DNA from: Calcarisporiella thermophila CBS 279.70
Taxonomy: Eukaryota; Fungi; Calcarisporiellomycota
Length of the DNA: 64,000 nucleotides
Direction of reading: 5' to 3'
NCBI RefSeq assembly: GCF_041956535.1
Contig: NW_027192206.1
Location: 461,488 to 525,487, forward strand
Positions 16,127-32,222 of this stretch are shown one piece after another (position 1 is the stretch's first letter; each line of letters begins with the position of its first letter). The notes beneath the pieces are model-generated. The model made no database searches, was not told the DNA's origin, and saw only the letters and a list, made by a program, of their open reading frames with translations. The position numbers were made by a program, and so were the translations under genes.

Positions 16127-16979
16127 TTAAAAACTCTTGGCTAGCCATCCGTTCAATGCATCCAACAGCTGTCGCGCTTCTTCTTCCGTACGGAACATAT
16201 GATCTGCACCGGGCACCACTTGCAGCTCACTGTTCTCAATCATTTCCTGGAACTTATATGCATCCTTCACGGGTATAGTTTTGTCGCATTCGCCGTGGAT
16301 TATCAACACTCTCGTACGTCCCCCATCTATTCTCGCCACAATGGACATGTCCAAACTGCACCGCTTCTCCATATCCTCTCTCGTCACCACATAGTCTCGA
16401 CCGTTAATGGGCATGGGACACCACACAAACGAGCCCTGCTCGGCAAGGCTCTTGCGCTGTTCGTCAGAAAAACGGAAGGAGGGAGCCTGGGAGTGATCGT
16501 AACGCCCTGCAATATTGACGATGAGGGGGACGTCATTATGCTTGCTAGCATGGCGAAGAACAACAGCGCCGCCACGAGAATGTCCCATGAGGCATCTTAC
16601 ATTCCATTGATGCGAGCGAAGGAAGCCGACAACGTCGTGGAGATTCTCGACCTCCTCATCATAATTGCCATACTTTGCCACCCCGCCTATGTATTCAAAG
16701 AGGCCGGATGAGTGTCATCCGAAGAAAAATGAAATGCAACGGTTATTGGATATTACCTGAATCACCGTTTCCTTCAAAATCGAATGCGAAAACATTGTAT
16801 GGCAATCCACCACAGAGCCCTCGAATAATTTTCGATCGACGAGTGTTGAGAATCCCATGGCAGATGACGATGAGATCGCGAGTGGAATCGCGCACGAAAA
16901 GAGTGCCAACCAGATTGTATCCGTGGGAGCACGGAATGGTCAAGGTTTCTTCGCCTGGTGAGGGTGCAGCAATGGTCAT
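16127..16979 (-). CDS. Alpha/beta-fold hydrolase (esterase/serine aminopeptidase S33-like), 2 exons
   Basis: VICHG, FDFEGNGDSG, nucleophile elbow GHSRGG, IIHGECD (Asp), PGADHMF (His). Confidence 0.9.
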
Positions 16980-17482
16980 TTTCACGAGGATGGGACCTGG
17001 AGTTCGAGGCAAGACTGCCTTTTTATTTCCTGGGCCGTTAATATGTGATTGGATAGAATGTATCTCCCGATTTCAGGGAGAATAAGTAGTCTTATTGAGG
17101 GGGAAATTTTCTCTCTCAAAATGACACTTTGGAACACAAAAAATTTGGGTTTGAGCATTTATTTTGGTTTTGCTGAAAATTAGAACTATTTATTTGAATA
17201 CAGTATTGACATTTGTTAGACTATATATAACGATATCCGATAAAAAATGATTTACTTACAATTTCTACAGTAAATTCCTCTCCCATCGCGTCTAAAGCAA
17301 TGGCGTGTATTTCTTTTTTTTTTTGCCTTTACTATTTTGAATTCCACAAGGTACCAAATTTATGAGGTTGTTATTCCAAAGACAAAAATATTACAAAACC
17401 AACACAGATATAAAACGGAATAATCAAGAATATCGTATCATTCGAAGTATGTAAGCTACAAGGGACAAAACCGGCCACTACA

Positions 17483-19888
17483 TCAGAAAGGTGGCGGAGT
17501 CATGGCTGCCCAAGAGAGAACACCGGAATCATTGCGCCAGTAGGCCTTATACGTGGCCCCAGAACGGGCAATGACTTCAAAGTTACCCCTCAAAGGCGAG
17601 CCAAAGTTGCTTTGAATCAGAGTTACGTCGTCGAAATGGAGAGGATCGCCGAAGGAAGCAGGCCCATGCCAAGGTAGCCCTGCCGCATCGTTTTCTCGCC
17701 ACCAGAGGCCGAGGCCACCACTGGCTAGTGGAGCAATTACCTCGAAATTGCCACGATTACCGAATCGACTCTGAATAAACGCGGGTTCTCCGCGTACCCC
17801 TGTGGCAAAGGCCACGCCTTGATGCCAACCAGTTTCATCGCGATAGAAATGGTGTAATGCGTTTCCAATACGAGCAACCACTTCAAGGTTGCCTGGATTG
17901 CCGTAGTTGCTCTGAATGAGAGCCACTGATGACACTACACCAACATTCGTGGCGAAGACAGTACCACCACTCCACGGGTTGCCAGGGGCATCGTTATTAC
18001 GCCACCAGTGTGCTATTCCTCCGCTGGAGAGTGGAGCAACCAGTTCGAAGTTACCTCTTCCTCCGTAGATGCCTTGGATTAGGGCGGGAGATCCGGACAC
18101 ATTATTAGCAAAGGTAGGACCAATATGCCAGGCAACATTAGAATCACGCCAGAGATGTACAAGATGCGAGCCCACACGCCCAACCACTTCGAAATTGCCG
18201 TGCGAACCGTAGTTACCTTGTAACAACGAGACTCGTCCAATGAAAGTACCGGCATCAGAGGCGAAAGTAGTCGGTCCATGCCAGGGAAGTCCTGTGGTGT
18301 TGTTATCTCGCCAACAGTGGCGGAGCCCTCCACCGGGCGTGGGCACAACCACTTCGAAATTGCCCTGAGAGCCATAGTTACTCTGGATCAACCATCCGCT
18401 GGAATTTGCCGCTGGAGCCAATCGCACAAACTTGCCCACCGAAGGGACGCCGCTTTGGTTCAGCAAGAAAGCAAGATAGTAACCAGGTGGAGCAATCGCA
18501 GGAGTTGGAGGGGCGGTCACTGCGAGTGCTCTTCCACCTTTGCGGTGGAAAGTCACTTCCACGTAGCGCTGATCTGAGTTAAAGGCGTGGGTTACAGATC
18601 CCGCCTTCACCAATACCACCCGGGCAATGTTTGGAGCATCTTGTGTCTCGATATCAAACTGGCGGCCCCACCCGGTAGATCTCTGTACGCGCCCGATCCT
18701 CGGTCGATTTTGATGGACGTAAGATGGCTCGTAGATCTCGATCCTCAGCTCTCGGTTGTCTTGTCCAGGGGGTTGATAGCTTTGGCTCCCATTCTTATTC
18801 GAACCACAGGTCCAGACCCGACCATCGGGCATGAGAAGAGCAACCGAATGGTAATTGCGTGTCACTGTGGCGGTTTCCAGGACGGACCAAGAGTTGGTGG
18901 TGGGATTATACAGCTCGGCAGTGCGGACTGCAGTATTGTCATTCCCTTGATTAACCACACCTCCACAGACGAAAACCATTCCAGTGGGAAGGATGATTGA
19001 GCTGCAGTTGAGTCGCACTGGGCCTCCTGCCAAAGCTCTTGGCCCAGTAGGCTGCCAGCCGGCCGAAGGGTTACCCATATCTAGCAGGTAGGGGATATGC
19101 CCGCCGCAAACCAGCACACGAGCACGATATCCATCGCTGGGACGCAGCGGGAGCAAGACGGAGTTAACGTTCAGGCTTCCATAAATTCCATCTGGAGGAG
19201 CGGGACACAGGTCGTGATAGGCCCCAGTGTTTGGATCCAACGTTAAGGTTCGTTGATTTACTTGAGTAGTGAAGAGAACTTGCCCATTGGGCAGGACATG
19301 CAACCGAGGATAGAAGCCCACCGCATGTGCAGGGTCGGGACCAGTAAGTAGGCGCCAAGTTCCTCGCGAGCGTGGTGACGGAGAAAACTTCTCAGGAGAA
19401 TCATTGTTGTGCCGACTATCCTCGACCATAGGGTGACCGGAGACAGTGAGGATTTGACCGTTGGGTAGAGTAAGTAGTGTAGGGTACCAACGCCCTCCCC
19501 CCACGGTGCGTCCGGGTTCCGGATTCATGTCCGCAACACGAGTCCAGGTATGAGTGGCAGGATCGTACACCCAGGCATCACGTAACCCTGGAAAATGGGT
19601 CGCATGTTGACCTTCGTCCCTTGGAAATGCGCTTGTCCCCCCTGCGACCAAGAGTCGTCCGTCGATAAGGAAGGCATGCCCGCTGCAAAAGACGTCGCTT
19701 CCTGGGGAGGGGGCTCTTCGCACACTCAGCGAGTTGGTGTCGAACAGCCTGGTGTGATCGATCTGGTGCCTCGAATTTTGATCTTTGTCATGCTCATCAC
19801 CACTAAAGTAAAGAATTTCTCCCGTATGTAATAGGGCAGCATGAATTGCCAGCACTTCAGATTTATTTCTAAGGACAATCCAACCCAT
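17483..19888 (-). CDS. Copper-radical oxidase (AA5; Kelch propeller + Ig-like DUF1929 domain) fused to a six-repeat lectin-like beta-propeller; intronless
   Basis: Cofactor motifs FCSGH, RWYPT, RNYHS and SVTHAFN, followed by six LIQSxYG..GNFEV..H.WR..W repeats. First AUG is at 19888 (MGWIVL); the ORF track starts at an upstream TTG. Confidence 0.9.
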   Translation of the reverse strand: MGWIVLRNKSEVLAIHAALLHTGEILYFSGDEHDKDQNSRHQIDHTRLFDTNSLSVRRAPSPGSDVFCSGHAFLIDGRLLVAGGTSAFPRDEGQHATHFPGLRDAWVYDPATHTWTRVADMNPEPGRTVGGGRWYPTLLTLPNGQILTVSGHPMVEDSRHNNDSPEKFSPSPRSRGTWRLLTGPDPAHAVGFYPRLHVLPNGQVLFTTQVNQRTLTLDPNTGAYHDLCPAPPDGIYGSLNVNSVLLPLRPSDGYRARVLVCGGHIPYLLDMGNPSAGWQPTGPRALAGGPVRLNCSSIILPTGMVFVCGGVVNQGNDNTAVRTAELYNPTTNSWSVLETATVTRNYHSVALLMPDGRVWTCGSNKNGSQSYQPPGQDNRELRIEIYEPSYVHQNRPRIGRVQRSTGWGRQFDIETQDAPNIARVVLVKAGSVTHAFNSDQRYVEVTFHRKGGRALAVTAPPTPAIAPPGYYLAFLLNQSGVPSVGKFVRLAPAANSSGWLIQSNYGSQGNFEVVVPTPGGGLRHCWRDNNTTGLPWHGPTTFASDAGTFIGRVSLLQGNYGSHGNFEVVGRVGSHLVHLWRDSNVAWHIGPTFANNVSGSPALIQGIYGGRGNFELVAPLSSGGIAHWWRNNDAPGNPWSGGTVFATNVGVVSSVALIQSNYGNPGNLEVVARIGNALHHFYRDETGWHQGVAFATGVRGEPAFIQSRFGNRGNFEVIAPLASGGLGLWWRENDAAGLPWHGPASFGDPLHFDDVTLIQSNFGSPLRGNFEVIARSGATYKAYWRNDSGVLSWAAMTPPPF

Positions 19889-22808
19889 GATAATGATCAG
19901 GAGAACCGGATGAAATGGGTGAGAAAAAGGTTGCAAGGCTAATTAGACTCAAGATTAGGCCGTTTATATCCTGTTTAAATAAATTTCTTTTTAATGCTAT
20001 TTTAACGGAAGTGGTCTTAAGGCAAAAAGCAATACCTCCATGAAATATCTGTTTTTAGAATAGGAGGGTGCTGTAATATATCCTTGTATGGTCGGAGACA
20101 ATTCATAGCTTAGACTAAAGCTTCTGTCGGTTTTAGACTGGTTGTTTTTTGTCAGTGGAGTATACTTGTCCACCGTCCTTTAAAATAATGTAAGTAGACG
20201 CAGCCCAAACTGCCCTTAGTTATGCAGACATGGCTCGTGATTAACACAATCATGAGCCACTGAAAAATTTCAAATATCTATTGTTATTTTGGACCAATCT
20301 GGTTTCACACATTGGTCGCAGCGCCACGAGGAGCATGGAAAGCCGATCGAACCATAAAGAGACCCTAAAGGGGCCCTCGCTTCGTTATCCTCGTGGGTCG
20401 GATGCTATTCAAACATCGCCCATCCTGCTTTACTACGTTCTAAGGCGCGAAAGGAGTATTACATACTAGATAAAGAAACACAATTTAAGCATGCATCTGT
20501 AAGAAGACATATACCAGGCATTAGGGGGTAAACCCACTGTTTTGTTTGTTCTGTTGATCATTTGTAGGCGATATCCCACCCCCTCGAATTATTTTTCCAA
20601 ACGACGCCGTATGCTGAAGAAAGTGCCAACTCTTGGCGAATTACTACGCTCACAACTAGGCTGTTCTCTCGATTCCGTATGCTCCCCCACAAGGAACATC
20701 TTTTTCCAATAACTATTTACTCCTCATCTCCCTATCAAATGGCCACGGTTTTAGATAAACCTGTTCATGCATTGTGAGCCATTAGCGCTAATACTCGCTC
20801 TCTTTTCTATTAGCTCGGGTGACAATTCTCAAATCCATAATGAGACAGGGTCTTTGATCATTTTAGCTGCGGTTCTCAATTGTTTCCCTGGCAATCTTTG
20901 CTTGCCTTTTGTATGAGCCGGAATAGGAGGGTGTAAAGCCACCTTTACCCCAAAATTTTGCGAATGGATTGAAATTCTATCTCTTAAGAGGTCTATTTCT
21001 TGGGACGCGAATATGAAGATATAGGAATTTCGTACAGGCGATATGAAGTGCGTTTTTAATTTCACAAGGCTCATAAATCATTTCAGCAGTTTTGTTTTTG
21101 GAGAATATCAAGAAAAATGTGTGCGTATCTCCTCGTTTTTTAAACCCCAATTAGAAAGCAGTCGACAAACACGTTGCTTCTCTCCCATTTACCAAAAGCA
21201 ACGATATTGGTATGTATTAGTTGAAGTTAGCAATTGCGAACGTGTATGGATTATTTTCCCATACCTTTGAAGAAATGACAATCAAGAAATCCACAGAAGT
21301 CAGCCAAGAGCGTGAGTAGTTCCGACCTAAACCAAACCTTCTTGGGTACAAAAACGTAAATATCTTTGGCTTCATTTCTTTTTGACTCCTCTCTCCAATA
21401 CCCTCCAACCCCATCCTCCAAATCAAATAAACTATATTATCATAGGATTCACTGCATAAATTGTCTACCCAATCTCACAATATCCAGCTCTCCAAGGCGA
21501 CACAGATCCTCGACATGCGCTTTTGACCATAGATGTTTTTTAACCACGTTGTGTCCCAGAGTTCGCTTCGTCATTCTTTCTTTCTCTCCCTTGGCCATTC
21601 CTAACTAGCATAGATCTCTCCTCCACAAAGCACTGGTGGAGAGGATATATTGCAATACTTCCCTTCAATTTCTCAAATGGGTCTTGGCCATTTCTCCTTC
21701 TTCCTATTACACAAAATGGCAAATCTTCGGCGAAGCATTTTCTAGAATAATCGCAATGGATATATCTCTGAAGAGGACACGGATTATCGAGATTCTTTCC
21801 AGATACATGTCTTGCACATGTCGGTTATATTTTTAAAAAACAATCTAATTCGCTTTCTTAAAATATGGTGGAGTAAGAGAAAAAAATTTTGCTGTTGAGA
21901 TATTAAAATCAGGGTGAGATTTTTCGAACTTTTTGAATATATTCAACCTCATATCCTACAGATATTAGGTCGGATGCATCTCTCACCATCACACTCCACG
22001 TCAGTCTCCTCCTTGATCCCCTCCCACTCTCCCTTTTAGACATCTGTTTGCTGCCATCAAAGATGCTCTGAAAATTGGAAGAGGCGGAGTGGATGGGTGG
22101 TCAATTCGCTCTATTTCATATCAAGATGCATTGTAGAGTACCATCGAGGTTATGCATCTGCCACGCATATTCAAGTCGTCCAGTTCGAAATGAAACATGG
22201 CATGTTCATTGTTCGGAGTTCTTTGAGTCGATGGAGGGGTGCTCCGCCGTTCCCGGTTTTTCCATTCCCATCCGATCAAGTTTGAGCTTGACCGGCTGCT
22301 AGAATATAACCAAAAACTATTAAGGGTAGGGCCTATTCTACTTCATTAAACCATAGCCATAGGACAAGGGAAAGGGGCGAGACACAATCTAACTCCGCTA
22401 CCCCCTCCTGCCTCCCCCTGTCCGTCCCTTTGTTCGCGGATAATGGATCCGTCTTTCCGAAAATTAGCTTTATTTCTCCTTTTTGGCCAGTTTGGCCAAG
22501 GGACAATTAGAGCCATTTTCATTTTTAGTAAGGATTACCCGGGCTTTCCAGCTTTTGTTCTTCATTAAAAAGAAAAAACACCCCCCTCACTGAAGGCGTG
22601 TTTGTTATCTTGGTGTAGTCAGGGCTGTGGATTAGAATTATTGGTCCAAGGACTCGGCGAAAATATCCAGTCGTCTCAGTCCAACGAAGCCTATTTCCCT
22701 CGTGTCATAAGGGTCTTTCGTTGCTCTCCCAATGTGGTTCCGGGGATGGGGAAAAGTAATCTAAAAAACAGAGTTCCAACATCCAATGAAGGCTACCGAA
22801 ATGGTAAT

Positions 22809-23015
22809 ATGAAGGACGGGATCGTTTCTGTTCATTTTTGCTTGTTATTGCAAGCTGCTTGTTTGTTTTATGTGGCGGTAGCTTTGCCTACAGGGTTACT
22901 TGGTAGCATGCAAGGTTGTTTGTTAGGCTGCATGATTACTTGCATGGCCATCTTCTGCACTAGTTTATTGTTTGCTACGGTTGGCTTTATTTGTTCTCCC
23001 ATATGCATTGTTTGA
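22809..23015 (+). CDS. Candidate 68-aa small secreted cysteine-rich peptide
   Basis: Hydrophobic leader ending VAVA|LP, with six Cys in the putative mature part. No homology recognised. Confidence 0.25.
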   Translation: MKDGIVSVHFCLLLQAACLFYVAVALPTGLLGSMQGCLLGCMITCMAIFCTSLLFATVGFICSPICIV

Positions 23016-23541
23016 TAACATTGTCTGCTTTGTGCATCCAAAGTTTCGTTGACGCACAAAACAGACAAGGTGTGTAAACTCTCTGCCCATGGGGCTTCCT
23101 CTGCGTCCTCTCCATTTCTCCCATACCACACCTGGTTCAACCCAACAAAGTGGACCGCGAAGGAGGTTCAAAATTGGGGTTGCTTTTCGTCAGCTGACCT
23201 AGTTTGACAAACAAGCTGGTTGCAAATACTTCCGACTGAGATCATGTTGCGCGAAAAAAAAACAAGCTGTCGTTTGTTACCATGTCAACTCTGATCTAGG
23301 TGGAACATGCATACAAACAAAAGGTTTGGATTGAGGAGGAGGGGGGGGGGGGCAATGAGCCGCCTGTCTTTGCAACAGGAATAAAGTCATGTTGGATTGT
23401 ATCTGACACATGGATGTTGTTTACAAGAGAAATGGTTCGCTATCGTTGCCATATCGAAGCGAAGAAAAAGAAAGAGGAAAAAAATGAGGTGAGGGAAATG
23501 GGTGAATGCAAGCGTCGATCCATTAGAATCGCTTCTTTCCA

Positions 23542-25845: not shown

Positions 25846-26758
25846 ATGATGTATCACCACGACCAGCAGGTAGGCTCCCCTCAATGCCCTCTTTCATGGC
25901 CACAGGCCCTTACTGATGGAGGCCGCCTCTCCCATCTCCCCCTACAACAGTTGCGCATTCGCCAGTTTGCCCCCGTAATTCTGTACCATGACGCCCTCAT
26001 GCTCCCTCCGCTTCATCACCTGCACAAGCAGCGCATCAGCGACATGCTGCGGGAGCATTCAAAACAATGGGAGGGCATAATTCGGGACTACCAAGGTAGT
26101 CATCCATTCCGCTTTCTAATGCGGACCAATGTTGGGCGGCGAGTAGGACCGCCTCTCGCATGGCCAGCAATGCCGCCCATGGCCCCTCCCGATATTCCTC
26201 CATGATCCGCTAACATGCCCTCCTATTTTCCCTCTAGGTAGCATTGGCCTGCTGCCGAGGAAGCGCGACGTGCCCCACTCTCCATCCCTGACCTCCGACT
26301 CTGCTTATGCCTCATCATCGGATACCAGCGTCTCGCCCCCCTTACCCCCCCATCCCGCCCAGGACCCATACAGCTCCATCCATGCGCCCTCTCCCAATTC
26401 CCCCCCATCCCTCCCATCCCTCCCAAAGCGCCGCCGAGGAAACCTCCCAAAATCAACCACCGCCATTCTGCGCGCTTGGTTGGCCCAGCACGAGCGGCAT
26501 CCCTACCCCACGGAGGAGGAGAAGTCCGAGCTCGCGCAGCAGACCCGCCTGACCCTGAATCAAATCTCCAACTGGTTCATTAATGCACGGCGGAGATACC
26601 TGGTGCGCGGCAAGGTGGGCGGGTACGGGCTGCGGTCGATGCGGGATCGGGGCCAGAGCGAGGTTGATTACGCGGAGGAGGAGAGCTCCAGCGGGGGGGA
26701 GGAGTTCCGTCGCGGCGTGGACCCCAATCGGTATCCTAAGCGCCCGAGAGCACGCTAG
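25846..26758 (+). CDS. TALE-class homeodomain transcription factor (Homeobox_KN; Cup9/Tos8/TGIF-like), 3 exons
   Basis: [33 protein letters not shown]...[12 protein letters not shown] with the PYP loop and I50. Confidence 0.9.
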
Positions 26759-27225: not shown

Positions 27226-29529
27226 TTACGCATGCTGGATCATCTTGCGCCATACTCCATCGGCAACCCTCACCACATCCACCATCTCCCTCACATCATG
27301 CACCCGCAGAATGTCGGACCCGCCCGCAACCGCCGCCGTCACGGCCGCCGCAGTGCCCCATCCCCGCTTCTTCGGATCGGGCTGATCCGTCGCCCGCCCG
27401 ATGAATGCCTTCTTGGATGGGCCCACCAGGCACGGGAACCCCACTAGAGGCGACCGTGGCGAGGCGATCAGCTCCGGAAGCCGGCGCAACACCTCGAAAT
27501 TGTGCTCCGCCCCCTTGGCGAACCCAATCCCCGGATCCACGATGATGTTCCATCGCGCGATGCCACTGCGGATCGCGCTCTGAACGCGCTTGGCAAGATG
27601 CTCGCGCACATCCACAATCACATCGTCGTACTGCGTCAGCGACATCATCGTGCGCGCAGTGCCGCGCGTGTGCATCAGGCAGATCGGCACCTGCAGCTTG
27701 GCCACGGTGGGCAACATGTCGGGATCCGCATGGCCCGCGTGCACATCATTCACCAGATTGGCCCCCGCCTCAATGGCACTGCGTGCAACGCGAGCGCGGA
27801 ACGTATCCACCGAGATGGGCACCTTGACTCCTCGCTCCCGGAGCTTCCTAATCACCGGCACCACCCGCTGCTCCTCCACCTCCTCCGGGACATCTTCCGC
27901 ATCGGGCCGAGTGGACATCCCGCCGATATCCAGAATGTCGGCTCCATCGGCCACCAGCTGCTCAGCGTACTGCACCGCAGCGTCTACCGTGGAGTACGAG
28001 CCCCCGTCGCTGAAGGAGTCGGGCGTGACGTTCAGAATGCCCATGATATAGGTCTGGCGGCCCCATTCCCAAAGCAGGTTGTTTCCAAGAGGCATCACAC
28101 GCGAGATGGGCATCGTCTGGGAGGGCGAGTCGCTCTGAGCCTTGAGAAGCTGCGAGAGCAGCTGTCCACACGTGCGGAAGAGTTTGGGATGTTCGAGATT
28201 TTTCGCGATGCTAAAGGGGGAGAGGGGGGGGGGGAGGGGAAGCAAAAGAGGGAGAAACGCGCTATTAGTCAAGACCTCCATCCGCCATGCAACTCCACCC
28301 GGAACTTACTCGCAAAGCGGTCGCAGCACAAACTCGCGGTCCTGGATTCTCGGATGGGGAATTTGGAGCGTCTCTGAATGATGCTCCACATCATCATAAA
28401 ACAAAATGTCCAAGTCGATGGGGCGCGGCCCATAGCGCACCGTCTTCACCCTTCCCATGTTTTCCTCCACTTGCTTCATCCGCGCCAGCAAATCTTCGGG
28501 GGCGAGTCGTGTCATTACCTGGCACACCGCATTCAGGAAGGGCGGCTGGTCGGTGACATACATGGGCGGCGTTTTGTACAGGAAAGAGGTGTCGACGACA
28601 CGGCACTCGCACGTGTTCTCGAGCTCCTCAAGCGCTTTGTAGAGGTTCTGGGCTAGCGATCCGATGTTGGTGCCGAGGGCAATGTAGGCGGAGTGGTTGT
28701 ATCCATCCGACATGTCGGGCAGCCGCGCTCTTCCCGGCAGACTCTTCGCCGAGTCGATCGAGGCGCGGCGCTCGCTCTGCCTGATTTCGTTGAGCCAAGC
28801 CCGATCGCGCGTGACCTCCACCCCGGCCGTATCGGCAAACAGCAGGGCGCTGGGCTTCTCGGCGCGAACAGTAATGCGAGGTACATGGCACTGCTCGATC
28901 GCAACGCGTGCAACCGAGGTGACCAGGGCCTCCACCGTCTTGTAGGAGGAGGCCTCCACGTGTCGCGTAATGGTGCGCACAATGGTCCGGTAGTTGTACA
29001 TTTTGGGGACGCGGTCCTCTCTATGCACGTTCAGTGACGTCGGGAAGATTTGCAAATTGATGATCACCACCTGCGTTTCCTCTCTTTCCCAGGGATTCAC
29101 ACCAATGACCGTGGAAAGTCGCAGATCCCTCACGAAGATCGTGTCCTGCCCGTCTAGCTTGACTTCCTCTCCGTCGCGTAGACGACTGATCTCAATCCCG
29201 GCGGCGGCGGCGTGTAGCAGCGCACGGGGTTTCTCTACTCGCACAATAGCCTTCTCGGCTCCACACGAAATGCAAACTTTGGCTATCCCCTCAGCAAGGG
29301 CCTCGACGCTGCGGAAGTGGCTGTCCTCCGCGAATTTCGTGACCGCTTTGGTGGTGAGCCCGTAGTGAAGTGAGGTGCCTAGATGATCGGTGGCGCCGAC
29401 CTGCGAAATAGGGTGATGAAGGGTTAAGTCGAGGTGGACGGGCTGCTTTTTGACGCGTTCCCAAGAGTCGACGCCGAGGATGGTGCGGACCTTGAGATTT
29501 CGAATAAGGATTTTGTCGGGTTCCTGCAT
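27226..29529 (-). CDS. FOL1: Trifunctional folate synthesis protein (2x DHNA, HPPK, DHPS), one intron at about 28210-28310
   Basis: Two DHNA repeats (ILGVDSWER, VIGVNPWER); HPPK AYIALGTN and GPRPIDLDILFY; DHPS MGILNVTPDSFSDGG and ILRVHDV. Confidence 0.97.
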
Positions 29530-30956: not shown

Positions 30957-32222
30957 CTAGACAATATTATCGCCCACACACCCCTTCTCCCTCTCGATCC
31001 CGATGGTTGTCCAATCGAAGCCGTAGTCGTGGCCCGGAAGCACCACCACCCGATCCTCCAAAGCCCCCAGCACATGGCTCAGCGAGTGCCGCATCGACTC
31101 CGACGAGCCCCCCGGTAAGTCGGTCCGCCCGCAGATACCCCCCAATAGGGTGTCCCCTGCCAGTAATCGACACCCGTTCACCAGCACACATTGGGAGCCG
31201 GGCGTGTGGCCGGGCGTGTGCAAGAACTTCAGCACGGTGCCGCCCATCCGGATCTGTTCGGGGGATGGCACGAGTCGGTGGGGCTGGATGGAGGGATTGG
31301 CGGAGAGCACCGGCTGGATGTCCAGAGGGTGCACATAGGCGGGGATGTGGGGGAACTTTTTGAGGAGGGTCGCGAGACCCGAGACCTTGATCGGGATCGA
31401 GTCGTAGGGCGGGGGAGGGCTTCCGCCCACATGGTCAAAATGGTGGTGCGTAACAATGCAGGCCACCAGGGTATAGTTCTCTTCGCGTATAAACCGCACA
31501 ATGCCCTCCACGTCCCAGCAGGCGTCGACAGCAATGCACTCGCGCGTTGCGAGATCGGCAACTATGTAAATGAGATTTTTCATCATTTCTGCATACTCGA
31601 AGACGCGATTCTGCACCGGGGAAGTGAAGCTGCGCTCTAGCGCAATGTCTCTCCCCGGCAGCAAAGCCTCGATCGCGAATCCCATTCTCCTGTTGTCTCT
31701 CTGCATCAGCGCTTTTGACAATCTATTCTTTATGTCGGTCCCGTTCTCTGTGTCGAGTTTAATGGCGCACTTATAGTCCTCTATGGCTGCATCGAACTGA
31801 TGCTGGCGAAGCAGTGCCTCTGCGCGACGCAGATAACCTTTGGCCCAATTCGGTCGCAAGCGCACCACCTGATCTGCATCCTGCTTTGCCTGGGTATACT
31901 GGCGCAGCATAAAGTAGCTTGCGCTGCGGTTGGAGTAAAGGAGAGCTAGAAAATCGCTTGGCTCTGGAGACACTACTTCCACTGCTTGGATAGCCTTGAA
32001 ATACTCAGTGATGGCATCCTTATAATACCGGCGCTGAAACTAGATGAAATGGAAGGAATCTCCGTGAGAATAAGCGCAGATGTAGATAAAGAATGGTATA
32101 CGTACATTATCGTTCGCTCGGCATACGTATTTGTACGTGCGATCATCAGGTGCCTCTGGATGAAAGGCAGCCTTCGGCCCGGATGCGATGGATGGGGGTT
32201 TCCTTGAATCCGAACGCGACAT
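30957..32222 (-). CDS. TPR-repeat / metallo-beta-lactamase (glyoxalase II-like) fusion protein, 2 exons
   Basis: TPRs (LYSNRSASYF, PNWAKGYLRRAEAL) followed in the same exon by THHHFDH, HTPGHTPGSQC, AGDTL and PGHDY. Confidence 0.88.

Follow-up and report, generated by a model that had tools for sequence, protein, structure and literature searches.

An intron-less copper radical oxidase with a PLL-related propeller in the fungus Calcarisporiella thermophila, a likely bacterial xenolog

The gene and its domains

The window considered here, i.e., the whole stretch of DNA analysed, comprises 64,000 nucleotides from the fungus Calcarisporiella thermophila CBS 279.70 (assembly GCF_041956535.1, contig NW_027192206.1, forward-strand positions 461,488 to 525,487). 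On its minus strand, positions 17483-19888 form a single open frame of 801 codons, uninterrupted by stop codons and without intron, which encodes a predicted copper radical oxidase joined to a six-bladed propeller related to the PLL lectins, and which is likely a bacterial xenolog. Exactly this 801-residue sequence is present in NCBI and UniRef, and the window holds one copy of the gene. The features of the gene given below all lie on the minus strand.

A first-pass annotation of this DNA had described a frame of about 801 codons with all the cofactor residues of the AA5 family, an Ig-like domain followed by six repeats, and a protein starting at the first Kelch blade, and in these respects its description was accurate. 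Pfam places Kelch and Glyoxal_oxid_N matches within the first 390 residues, followed by GO-like_E_set at residues 395-489; the Kelch propeller and subsequent Ig-like domain of AA5 are thus present. The catalytic Kelch propeller extends from the start codon to residue 393 (18710-19888), as indicated by Pfam, the predicted model, and Foldseek. The Ig-like E-set domain (residues 395-489; 18422-18706; PF09118, E 7e-25) bears the copper ligand H434. No Pfam family was assigned to residues 490-801 at E<=0.01, PF26607 included when the single sequence was used. The full-length model was predicted with a pLDDT of 93.2 and a pTM of 0.92, and residues 3-9 already form one strand of the oxidase in it, so that the product of AUG 19888 is, by this model, devoid of both a signal peptide and a CBM32 module.

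The oxidase domain and its likely substrate

The full AA5 ligand set is intact. It includes C68 (19685-19687), the predicted Cys of the Cys-Tyr cofactor; Y135, the cofactor Tyr, adjoined by the second-shell residue W134 (W134-Y135, 19484-19489); Y346-H347 (18848-18853), the axial Tyr and the first His copper ligand; and H434 (18587-18589), the second His ligand. Apart from W134, these are the positions that the first-pass annotation had listed. A homologue search returned 1,688 matches, the best 120 of which were listed and analysed. The five first-shell residues and W134 are kept in 118-119 of 119 aligned relatives: W134 and Y135 are invariant (119/119), C68 is Cys in 118, and Leu occupies the H434 column in one row. 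Two variants were observed among the relatives: P0104 lacks the second His, and in L004:4977-6482, which has no propeller, the Tyr-Tyr pair otherwise conserved ahead of the YP motif is replaced by Arg-Ser.

The best-matching fold in Foldseek is that of Streptomyces GlxA (4UNM, E 4e-34), and the sequence alignment to the same protein spans the ligand motifs (E 2e-46). In a recent structure paper, an adjacent Trp-Tyr pair is reported both for GlxA and for the AA5_1 aldehyde oxidases of fungi, in contrast to galactose oxidase, and is tentatively tied to aldehyde activity (PMC13094651). The sequence therefore points to an aldehyde-type enzyme resembling GlxA and AA5_1 more than to a galactose oxidase, and the W134-Y135 adjacency makes small aldehydes the likelier substrates by analogy. 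The oxidation of a bound glycan, implied in the first-pass annotation, is disfavoured by the same residues. A broad substrate range has been described for the copper radical oxidase family (PMC11611005, PMC11267884).

The propeller domain

Six GN[FL]E repeats of about 50 residues each follow the Ig-like domain, at spacings of 55, 48, 54, 47, and 55 residues. The propeller that they build (17486-18394) comprises three long/short blade pairs, with blades at 18230-18394, 18086-18229, 17924-18085, 17783-17923, 17618-17782, and 17486-17617. In the AlphaFold2 prediction, residues 495-801 fold into beta structure throughout (pLDDT 93.5, pTM 0.91), and this model matches six-bladed propellers in structure comparison. 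The best 21 rows listed by Foldseek are PLL-type seven-bladed lectins. A family profile matched PLL5 among the PDB chains at E 2.6e-14; it was built from 14 rows picked by their PF26607 or FG-GAP labels, and hence from a biased selection. With a 120-row propeller profile no PDB chain was matched, and a blade profile gave four weak matches, among them PLL2 at E 7.4. The Atlas neighbours of the domain are Beta-prop_PLL (0.95). As judged from sequence, the propeller is homologous to the Photorhabdus PLL lectins.

This homology sustains the earlier description of a lectin-like six-bladed propeller, although not the link to AAL that came with it. No AAL or RSL chain was found at E<=10 with three profiles, and the resemblance to AAL is one of fold only, at 8-16% identity and tied with sialidases. 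In a tentative register, Glu and His stand where the Arg and Glu of AAL's Arg/Glu/Trp fucose pocket would be expected.

The binding sites of the PLL lectins are retained unevenly. Both tryptophans of the fucose pocket, i.e., the hydrophobic site, are missing, with 0/6 blades carrying Trp at either position; these positions were deduced from PLL3 numbering mapped onto the PLL2 and PLL5 alignments, the PLL3 sequence itself not being part of them. The polar-site position, of which the Trp column was mapped, has Trp in five blades and Tyr in one. The invariant residues of the propeller family (Q, N, E, R, D, and one W) differ from those of PLL.

Relatives in bacteria and the origin of the gene

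Among the best 120 of the 1,688 matches, the same fusion of oxidase and propeller is found in P0002-P0020, which derive from metagenomes and soil-dwelling bacteria and are 49-60% identical to the fungal protein. Most of them begin with M-x-W, aligned with the fungal start. An M-x(1-3)-W start occurs in 73/119 rows, and 82 of 95 relatives start at the oxidase. All ten organism-named matches among the best 120 are bacterial; the remainder are mostly metagenomic and may include further fungal copies. A GTDB scan with exact peptides retrieved one relative among 34 pattern matches.

The propeller stands after the oxidase in 28 of the 119 rows, the fungal copy included, before it in 22, and is absent from 69; propeller-after and propeller-before oxidases form separate clades. 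Four relatives lack one two-blade unit, and in 8/119 the same slot holds FG-GAP repeats. It was also observed that P0023-P0060 include a clade of stand-alone bacterial oxidases of about 498 residues which start at the first blade without a leader, and that others bear FG-GAP or crystallin-type tails in the propeller's slot.

The two closest loci, L002 and L003, come from bacteria; in both, a purine-rich ribosome-binding motif lies ahead of the start codon. They are the only two of 79 metagenome loci that carry the propeller. No conserved operon was detected, L001-L004 having no neighbours in common. At L002:2255-12416 the closest bacterial homologue adjoins a methyltransferase-like gene, and on its other flank lie putative sigma-factor, S8-peptidase, and TPR genes.

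A maximum-likelihood tree was built from 33 of the 119 oxidase domains under LG+G4 without a mixture model, with the fungal copy as the sole fungal AA5 protein in it. The fungal oxidase is sister to the pair P0002/P0147 (support 100/99), and P0147 clusters with a Mycobacteriales protein. A topology uniting the other 29 ingroup rows to the exclusion of the fungal copy was rejected by the approximately unbiased test (p=0.004). Compared with L002 and L003, 67% of first and 72-76% of second codon positions are identical, against 28-29% of fourfold sites. Saturated silent sites together with conserved first and second positions indicate a long divergence under purifying selection. The GC content at third positions (GC3) is 0.89 and 0.73 in L002 and L003 vs 0.51 in the fungal gene, whose codon use (1.05) falls inside the spread of 15 host open reading frames (0.74-1.34). 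One relative at 44% identity has a GC3 of 0.55; a donor of moderate GC is possible, which weakens the codon argument and leaves a drift in GC unproven.

The nesting among bacteria, the spliced fungal neighbours described below, and the saturated silent sites argue that the gene very probably entered the fungal lineage by an old transfer from bacteria. By sequence comparison, the fusion and the leaderless start are both older than this transfer and were inherited from bacteria, an origin that the first-pass annotation missed; it had treated the leaderless architecture as a fungal trait of the kind known from AAL and MOA. Intron-less bacterial xenologs are described as common in early-diverging fungi in a survey of such transfers (PMC11291939), whose main text names neither the genus nor galactose oxidase, although its supplements could list relatives.

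Genomic context

The window is fungal, with segments encoding FOL1, an RGS protein, an ENTH protein, a Met17-type enzyme, SPIN90/Ldb17, and threonyl-tRNA synthetase. The trifunctional FOL1 gene (27226-29529, minus strand) serves as a host marker; it is 100% identical to a Calcarisporiella thermophila protein, and early-diverging fungi, Endogone and Mortierella among them, supply the next named matches, at <=57% identity. Downstream of the oxidase gene, about 400 bp from its stop codon, lies an alpha/beta-hydrolase gene (16127-17072, minus strand) that is split between two frames and has a GT donor at 16756; it is likely a spliced eukaryotic gene. The flanks of the oxidase gene are AT-rich non-coding DNA. 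No bacterial-type neighbour was detected among 29 other open reading frames scanned in the window. The window contains no tRNA, and tandem repeats are absent from the vicinity of the gene.

Three other segments of the window deserve mention. A short hydrophobic Cys-rich frame at 22810-23015 (plus strand) resembles a secreted peptide; it is more likely the antisense shadow of the open frame at 22871-23167 (minus strand). A homeobox-like segment, which we take to be of the TALE type, occupies 26147-26755 (plus strand), and a TPR repeat is fused to a metallo-beta-lactamase-fold domain at 30957-31910 (minus strand).

Start codon and possible leader

The AUG at 19888 has a eukaryote-type context, with A at -3 and G at +4, and no ribosome-binding motif precedes it. 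The only route to a leader that was found is the pyrimidine-rich 5' flank (19889-19942, minus strand), in which 18 in-frame codons are open. Within this flank lie a TTG at 19934-19936 that could serve as a near-cognate start and an AG at 19939-19940, accompanied by a branch-like motif, that might act as a splice acceptor; the 18 codons plus the start would encode a hydrophobic run of 12 residues. The first-pass annotation had named an upstream exon or near-cognate start among the findings that would overturn its reading. Its leaderless start is upheld by the intron models, since all 15 in-frame models with one intron lack a strong donor, while the TTG and the AG within the 18 open codons tell the other way. 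The fungal protein contains nine N-glycosylation sequons vs 0-4 in 13 bacterial relatives. Sequon enrichment was considered as a sign of secretion and rejected, with 5.8 sequons expected (p=0.12).

The propeller as a mobile module in bacteria

Among representatives clustered at 50% identity, 1,391 are related to the propeller domain at E<=0.001, and 361 at 1e-30; the domain occurs in Frankia, Streptomyces, Ktedonosporobacter, and Methanotrichaceae. Fusion partners were sought in 135 longer proteins (72 + 63), many of them without a Pfam match. They include tyrosinase, multicopper oxidase, GH18, fucosidase, amidase, patatin, cytolysin, kinase, and DUF4185, as well as the proteases subtilase, astacin, M14, M43, A4, and trypsin. 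By a crude test with fragments included, 30 of 255 propeller carriers have a hydrophobic N-terminus. The presence of the module on many enzymes, and the swapping of its slot with FG-GAP repeats, fit a binding tag; the sequences identify the propeller as a mobile module of many bacterial enzymes, as expected of such a tag. The six-blade modules of P0172-P0426 were observed to be a large mobile family, mostly leaderless and mostly without Pfam annotation, and merit a family description of their own.

An exported version is encoded by a conjugative plasmid of Burkholderia ambifaria (L081:7806-11155), in which the propeller precedes the oxidase and the leader is of the export/lipoprotein type. The gene overlaps one for an SCO copper chaperone, found in this locus only among 81, and adjoins a sigma-54 regulator pair. 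This exported form and its overlap with the SCO gene indicate that the pairing of oxidase and propeller can work extracellularly.

Proposed role and alternative explanations

The reading that we favour, with about even confidence, is that of a leaderless oxidase producing H2O2 from aldehydes, released without a signal peptide and tethered by its propeller to a carbohydrate surface. The fusion and its leaderless start arose in bacteria, as the homologues show, and a single transfer into the fungal lineage would have been followed by long purifying selection, as suggested by the tree, the context, and the codon positions. With no leader, the protein would be made in the cytosol. In this enzyme family the Cys-Tyr cofactor matures by itself with copper, and here maturation would most plausibly follow lysis or non-classical export. 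Binding would be multivalent and probably weak, through polar-type sites between the blades and not through the PLL fucose pocket. At the bound surface, aldehydes such as methylglyoxal or glyceraldehyde would be oxidized locally to acid and H2O2. The local source of H2O2 proposed in the first-pass annotation is therefore kept as a tethered one, without the oxidase acting on the bound glycan itself. The surface could be the fungus's own wall, a substrate, or an antagonist, with antagonism making up about one third of this reading. PLL lectins offer a parallel, having no signal peptides and yet being found extracellularly (PMC12203525, in its section 10).

The enzyme could instead stay inside the cell and scavenge methylglyoxal or glyoxal, its propeller serving as a scaffold or as a binder of protein or small ligands other than glycans. 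Such a role, which is not very likely, would suit the leaderless start that the fungal copy shares with most relatives, the aldehyde-type W-Y second shell, the large share of relatives without any propeller, the loss of the fucose-pocket tryptophans, and the divergence of the family-invariant residues from those of PLL. It would, however, release H2O2 into the cytosol, where free copper is scarce, and it sits uneasily with the exported relatives and with partners of the module that are mostly enzyme types normally acting extracellularly. A bolder proposal, fairly unlikely in our estimate, is that the six-bladed PLL offshoot acts as an address label aiming leaderless bacterial enzymes at foreign surfaces, and that the fungus captured a glycan-guided peroxide generator against bacteria or grazers; if true, fungal defence would include a chimerolectin of a redox type. 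The related view of a stored defence chimerolectin, kept in the cytoplasm, binding fungivore gut glycans after feeding, and toxic through H2O2, appears unlikely. A leaderless, intron-less gene product of likely bacterial origin does fit the traits that a review gives for fungal defence proteins (PMC6272156), and PLL lectins are stated to bind insect and nematode surfaces (PMC6943638). Having been inherited from bacteria, however, these traits are no sign of a defensive function in the fungus; moreover, the pocket with which PLL binds fucose and O-methyl sugars has not been kept, and the enzyme requires copper and a supply of aldehydes.

Two further explanations concern the gene model and the assembly. 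A leader added by the fungus, through the near-cognate start or an upstream exon, would direct the protein to secretion in the manner of other AA5 enzymes from fungi. The open upstream codons, hydrophobic run, TTG, and AG with branch-like motif speak for it, as does the sequon count in comparison with bacterial relatives; that count is, however, at chance level for the composition, the intron models lack a strong donor, the AUG context is good, the start matches that of bacterial relatives, databases carry the 801-residue form, and cleavage past the hydrophobic run would delete a strand of the propeller in the predicted model. An added leader is consequently very unlikely. A bacterial fragment misjoined into the fungal assembly would account for an intron-less gene with only bacterial relatives and a single fungal occurrence. 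It is nonetheless highly improbable, given the AT-rich non-coding flanks with no bacterial-type gene beside the oxidase, the likely spliced hydrolase gene close by, the AUG without a ribosome-binding motif, and the host-like codon use, the last point being weaker if the donor was of moderate GC, as the GC3 of the 44%-identical relative allows.

Comparison with known systems

The concepts of the chimerolectin and of the bacterial xenolog are known, and the former term has already been applied to galactose oxidase carrying CBM32 (PMC12355970). No description of the oxidase-propeller fusion or of the module was found in the literature searched (titles and abstract starts; supplements of CAZy and AA5 surveys could list relatives).

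Among solved structures, GlxA (4UNM; NCBIfam NF052501) is the closest in both sequence and fold, with identical ligands and an adjacent Trp-Tyr pair. The fungal protein scores 225.4 bits on NF052501, below the equivalog cut-off of 800. It lacks the signal peptide of GlxA and its inserted beta domain of about 110 residues (the alignment jumps from 117 to 230), adds a C-terminal propeller, and its locus is not of the cslA type. With fungal AA5_1 (FgrAldOx, 9N3U) and AA5_2 oxidases it has in common the Kelch and Ig-like domains and the first-shell residues, its W-Y pair being that of AA5_1. Identity to these fungal enzymes is about 20-24% in fold alignments, in contrast to 60% to bacterial proteins. 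A signal peptide is again missing, and the accessory module is a C-terminal propeller instead of the N-terminal CBM32, WSC, or PAN modules reported for AA5 (PMC11611005).

The Photorhabdus lectins PLL and PHL (PF26607, Beta-prop_PLL) possess a homologous blade, G-x-[FL]-E-V...L-x-H-x-W...W, and are likewise leaderless. PLL has seven blades and is a free lectin, whereas here six blades are arranged in long/short pairs and the module is carried on enzymes, with two of the four PLL blade tryptophans lost, those that we infer to form the fucose pocket. AAL, RSL, and FleA (PropLec6A) are alike in their six-bladed fold, but this likeness is tied with sialidases and comes without a sequence-profile match. 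MOA and LSL have a similar leaderless design of binding plus effector domains, and LSL has likewise been reported as a bacterial transfer (PMC6272156). They differ in their ricin-B lectin fold, protease or pore effector, and demonstrated toxicity, the fungal fusion being, by sequence, one of propeller and oxidase.

In the literature consulted, copper radical oxidases are secreted or surface-bound. The present gene points to a sizeable bacterial clade of such enzymes that start at the catalytic domain and swap their binding modules, together with a rare fungal capture. An intron-less copy from a thermophile should be easy to express, so that substrate, copper supply, and propeller ligand can be tested together. 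Should the propeller bind foreign glycans, its lectin specificity would be new, and the fusion would be a novel type of targeted oxidant.
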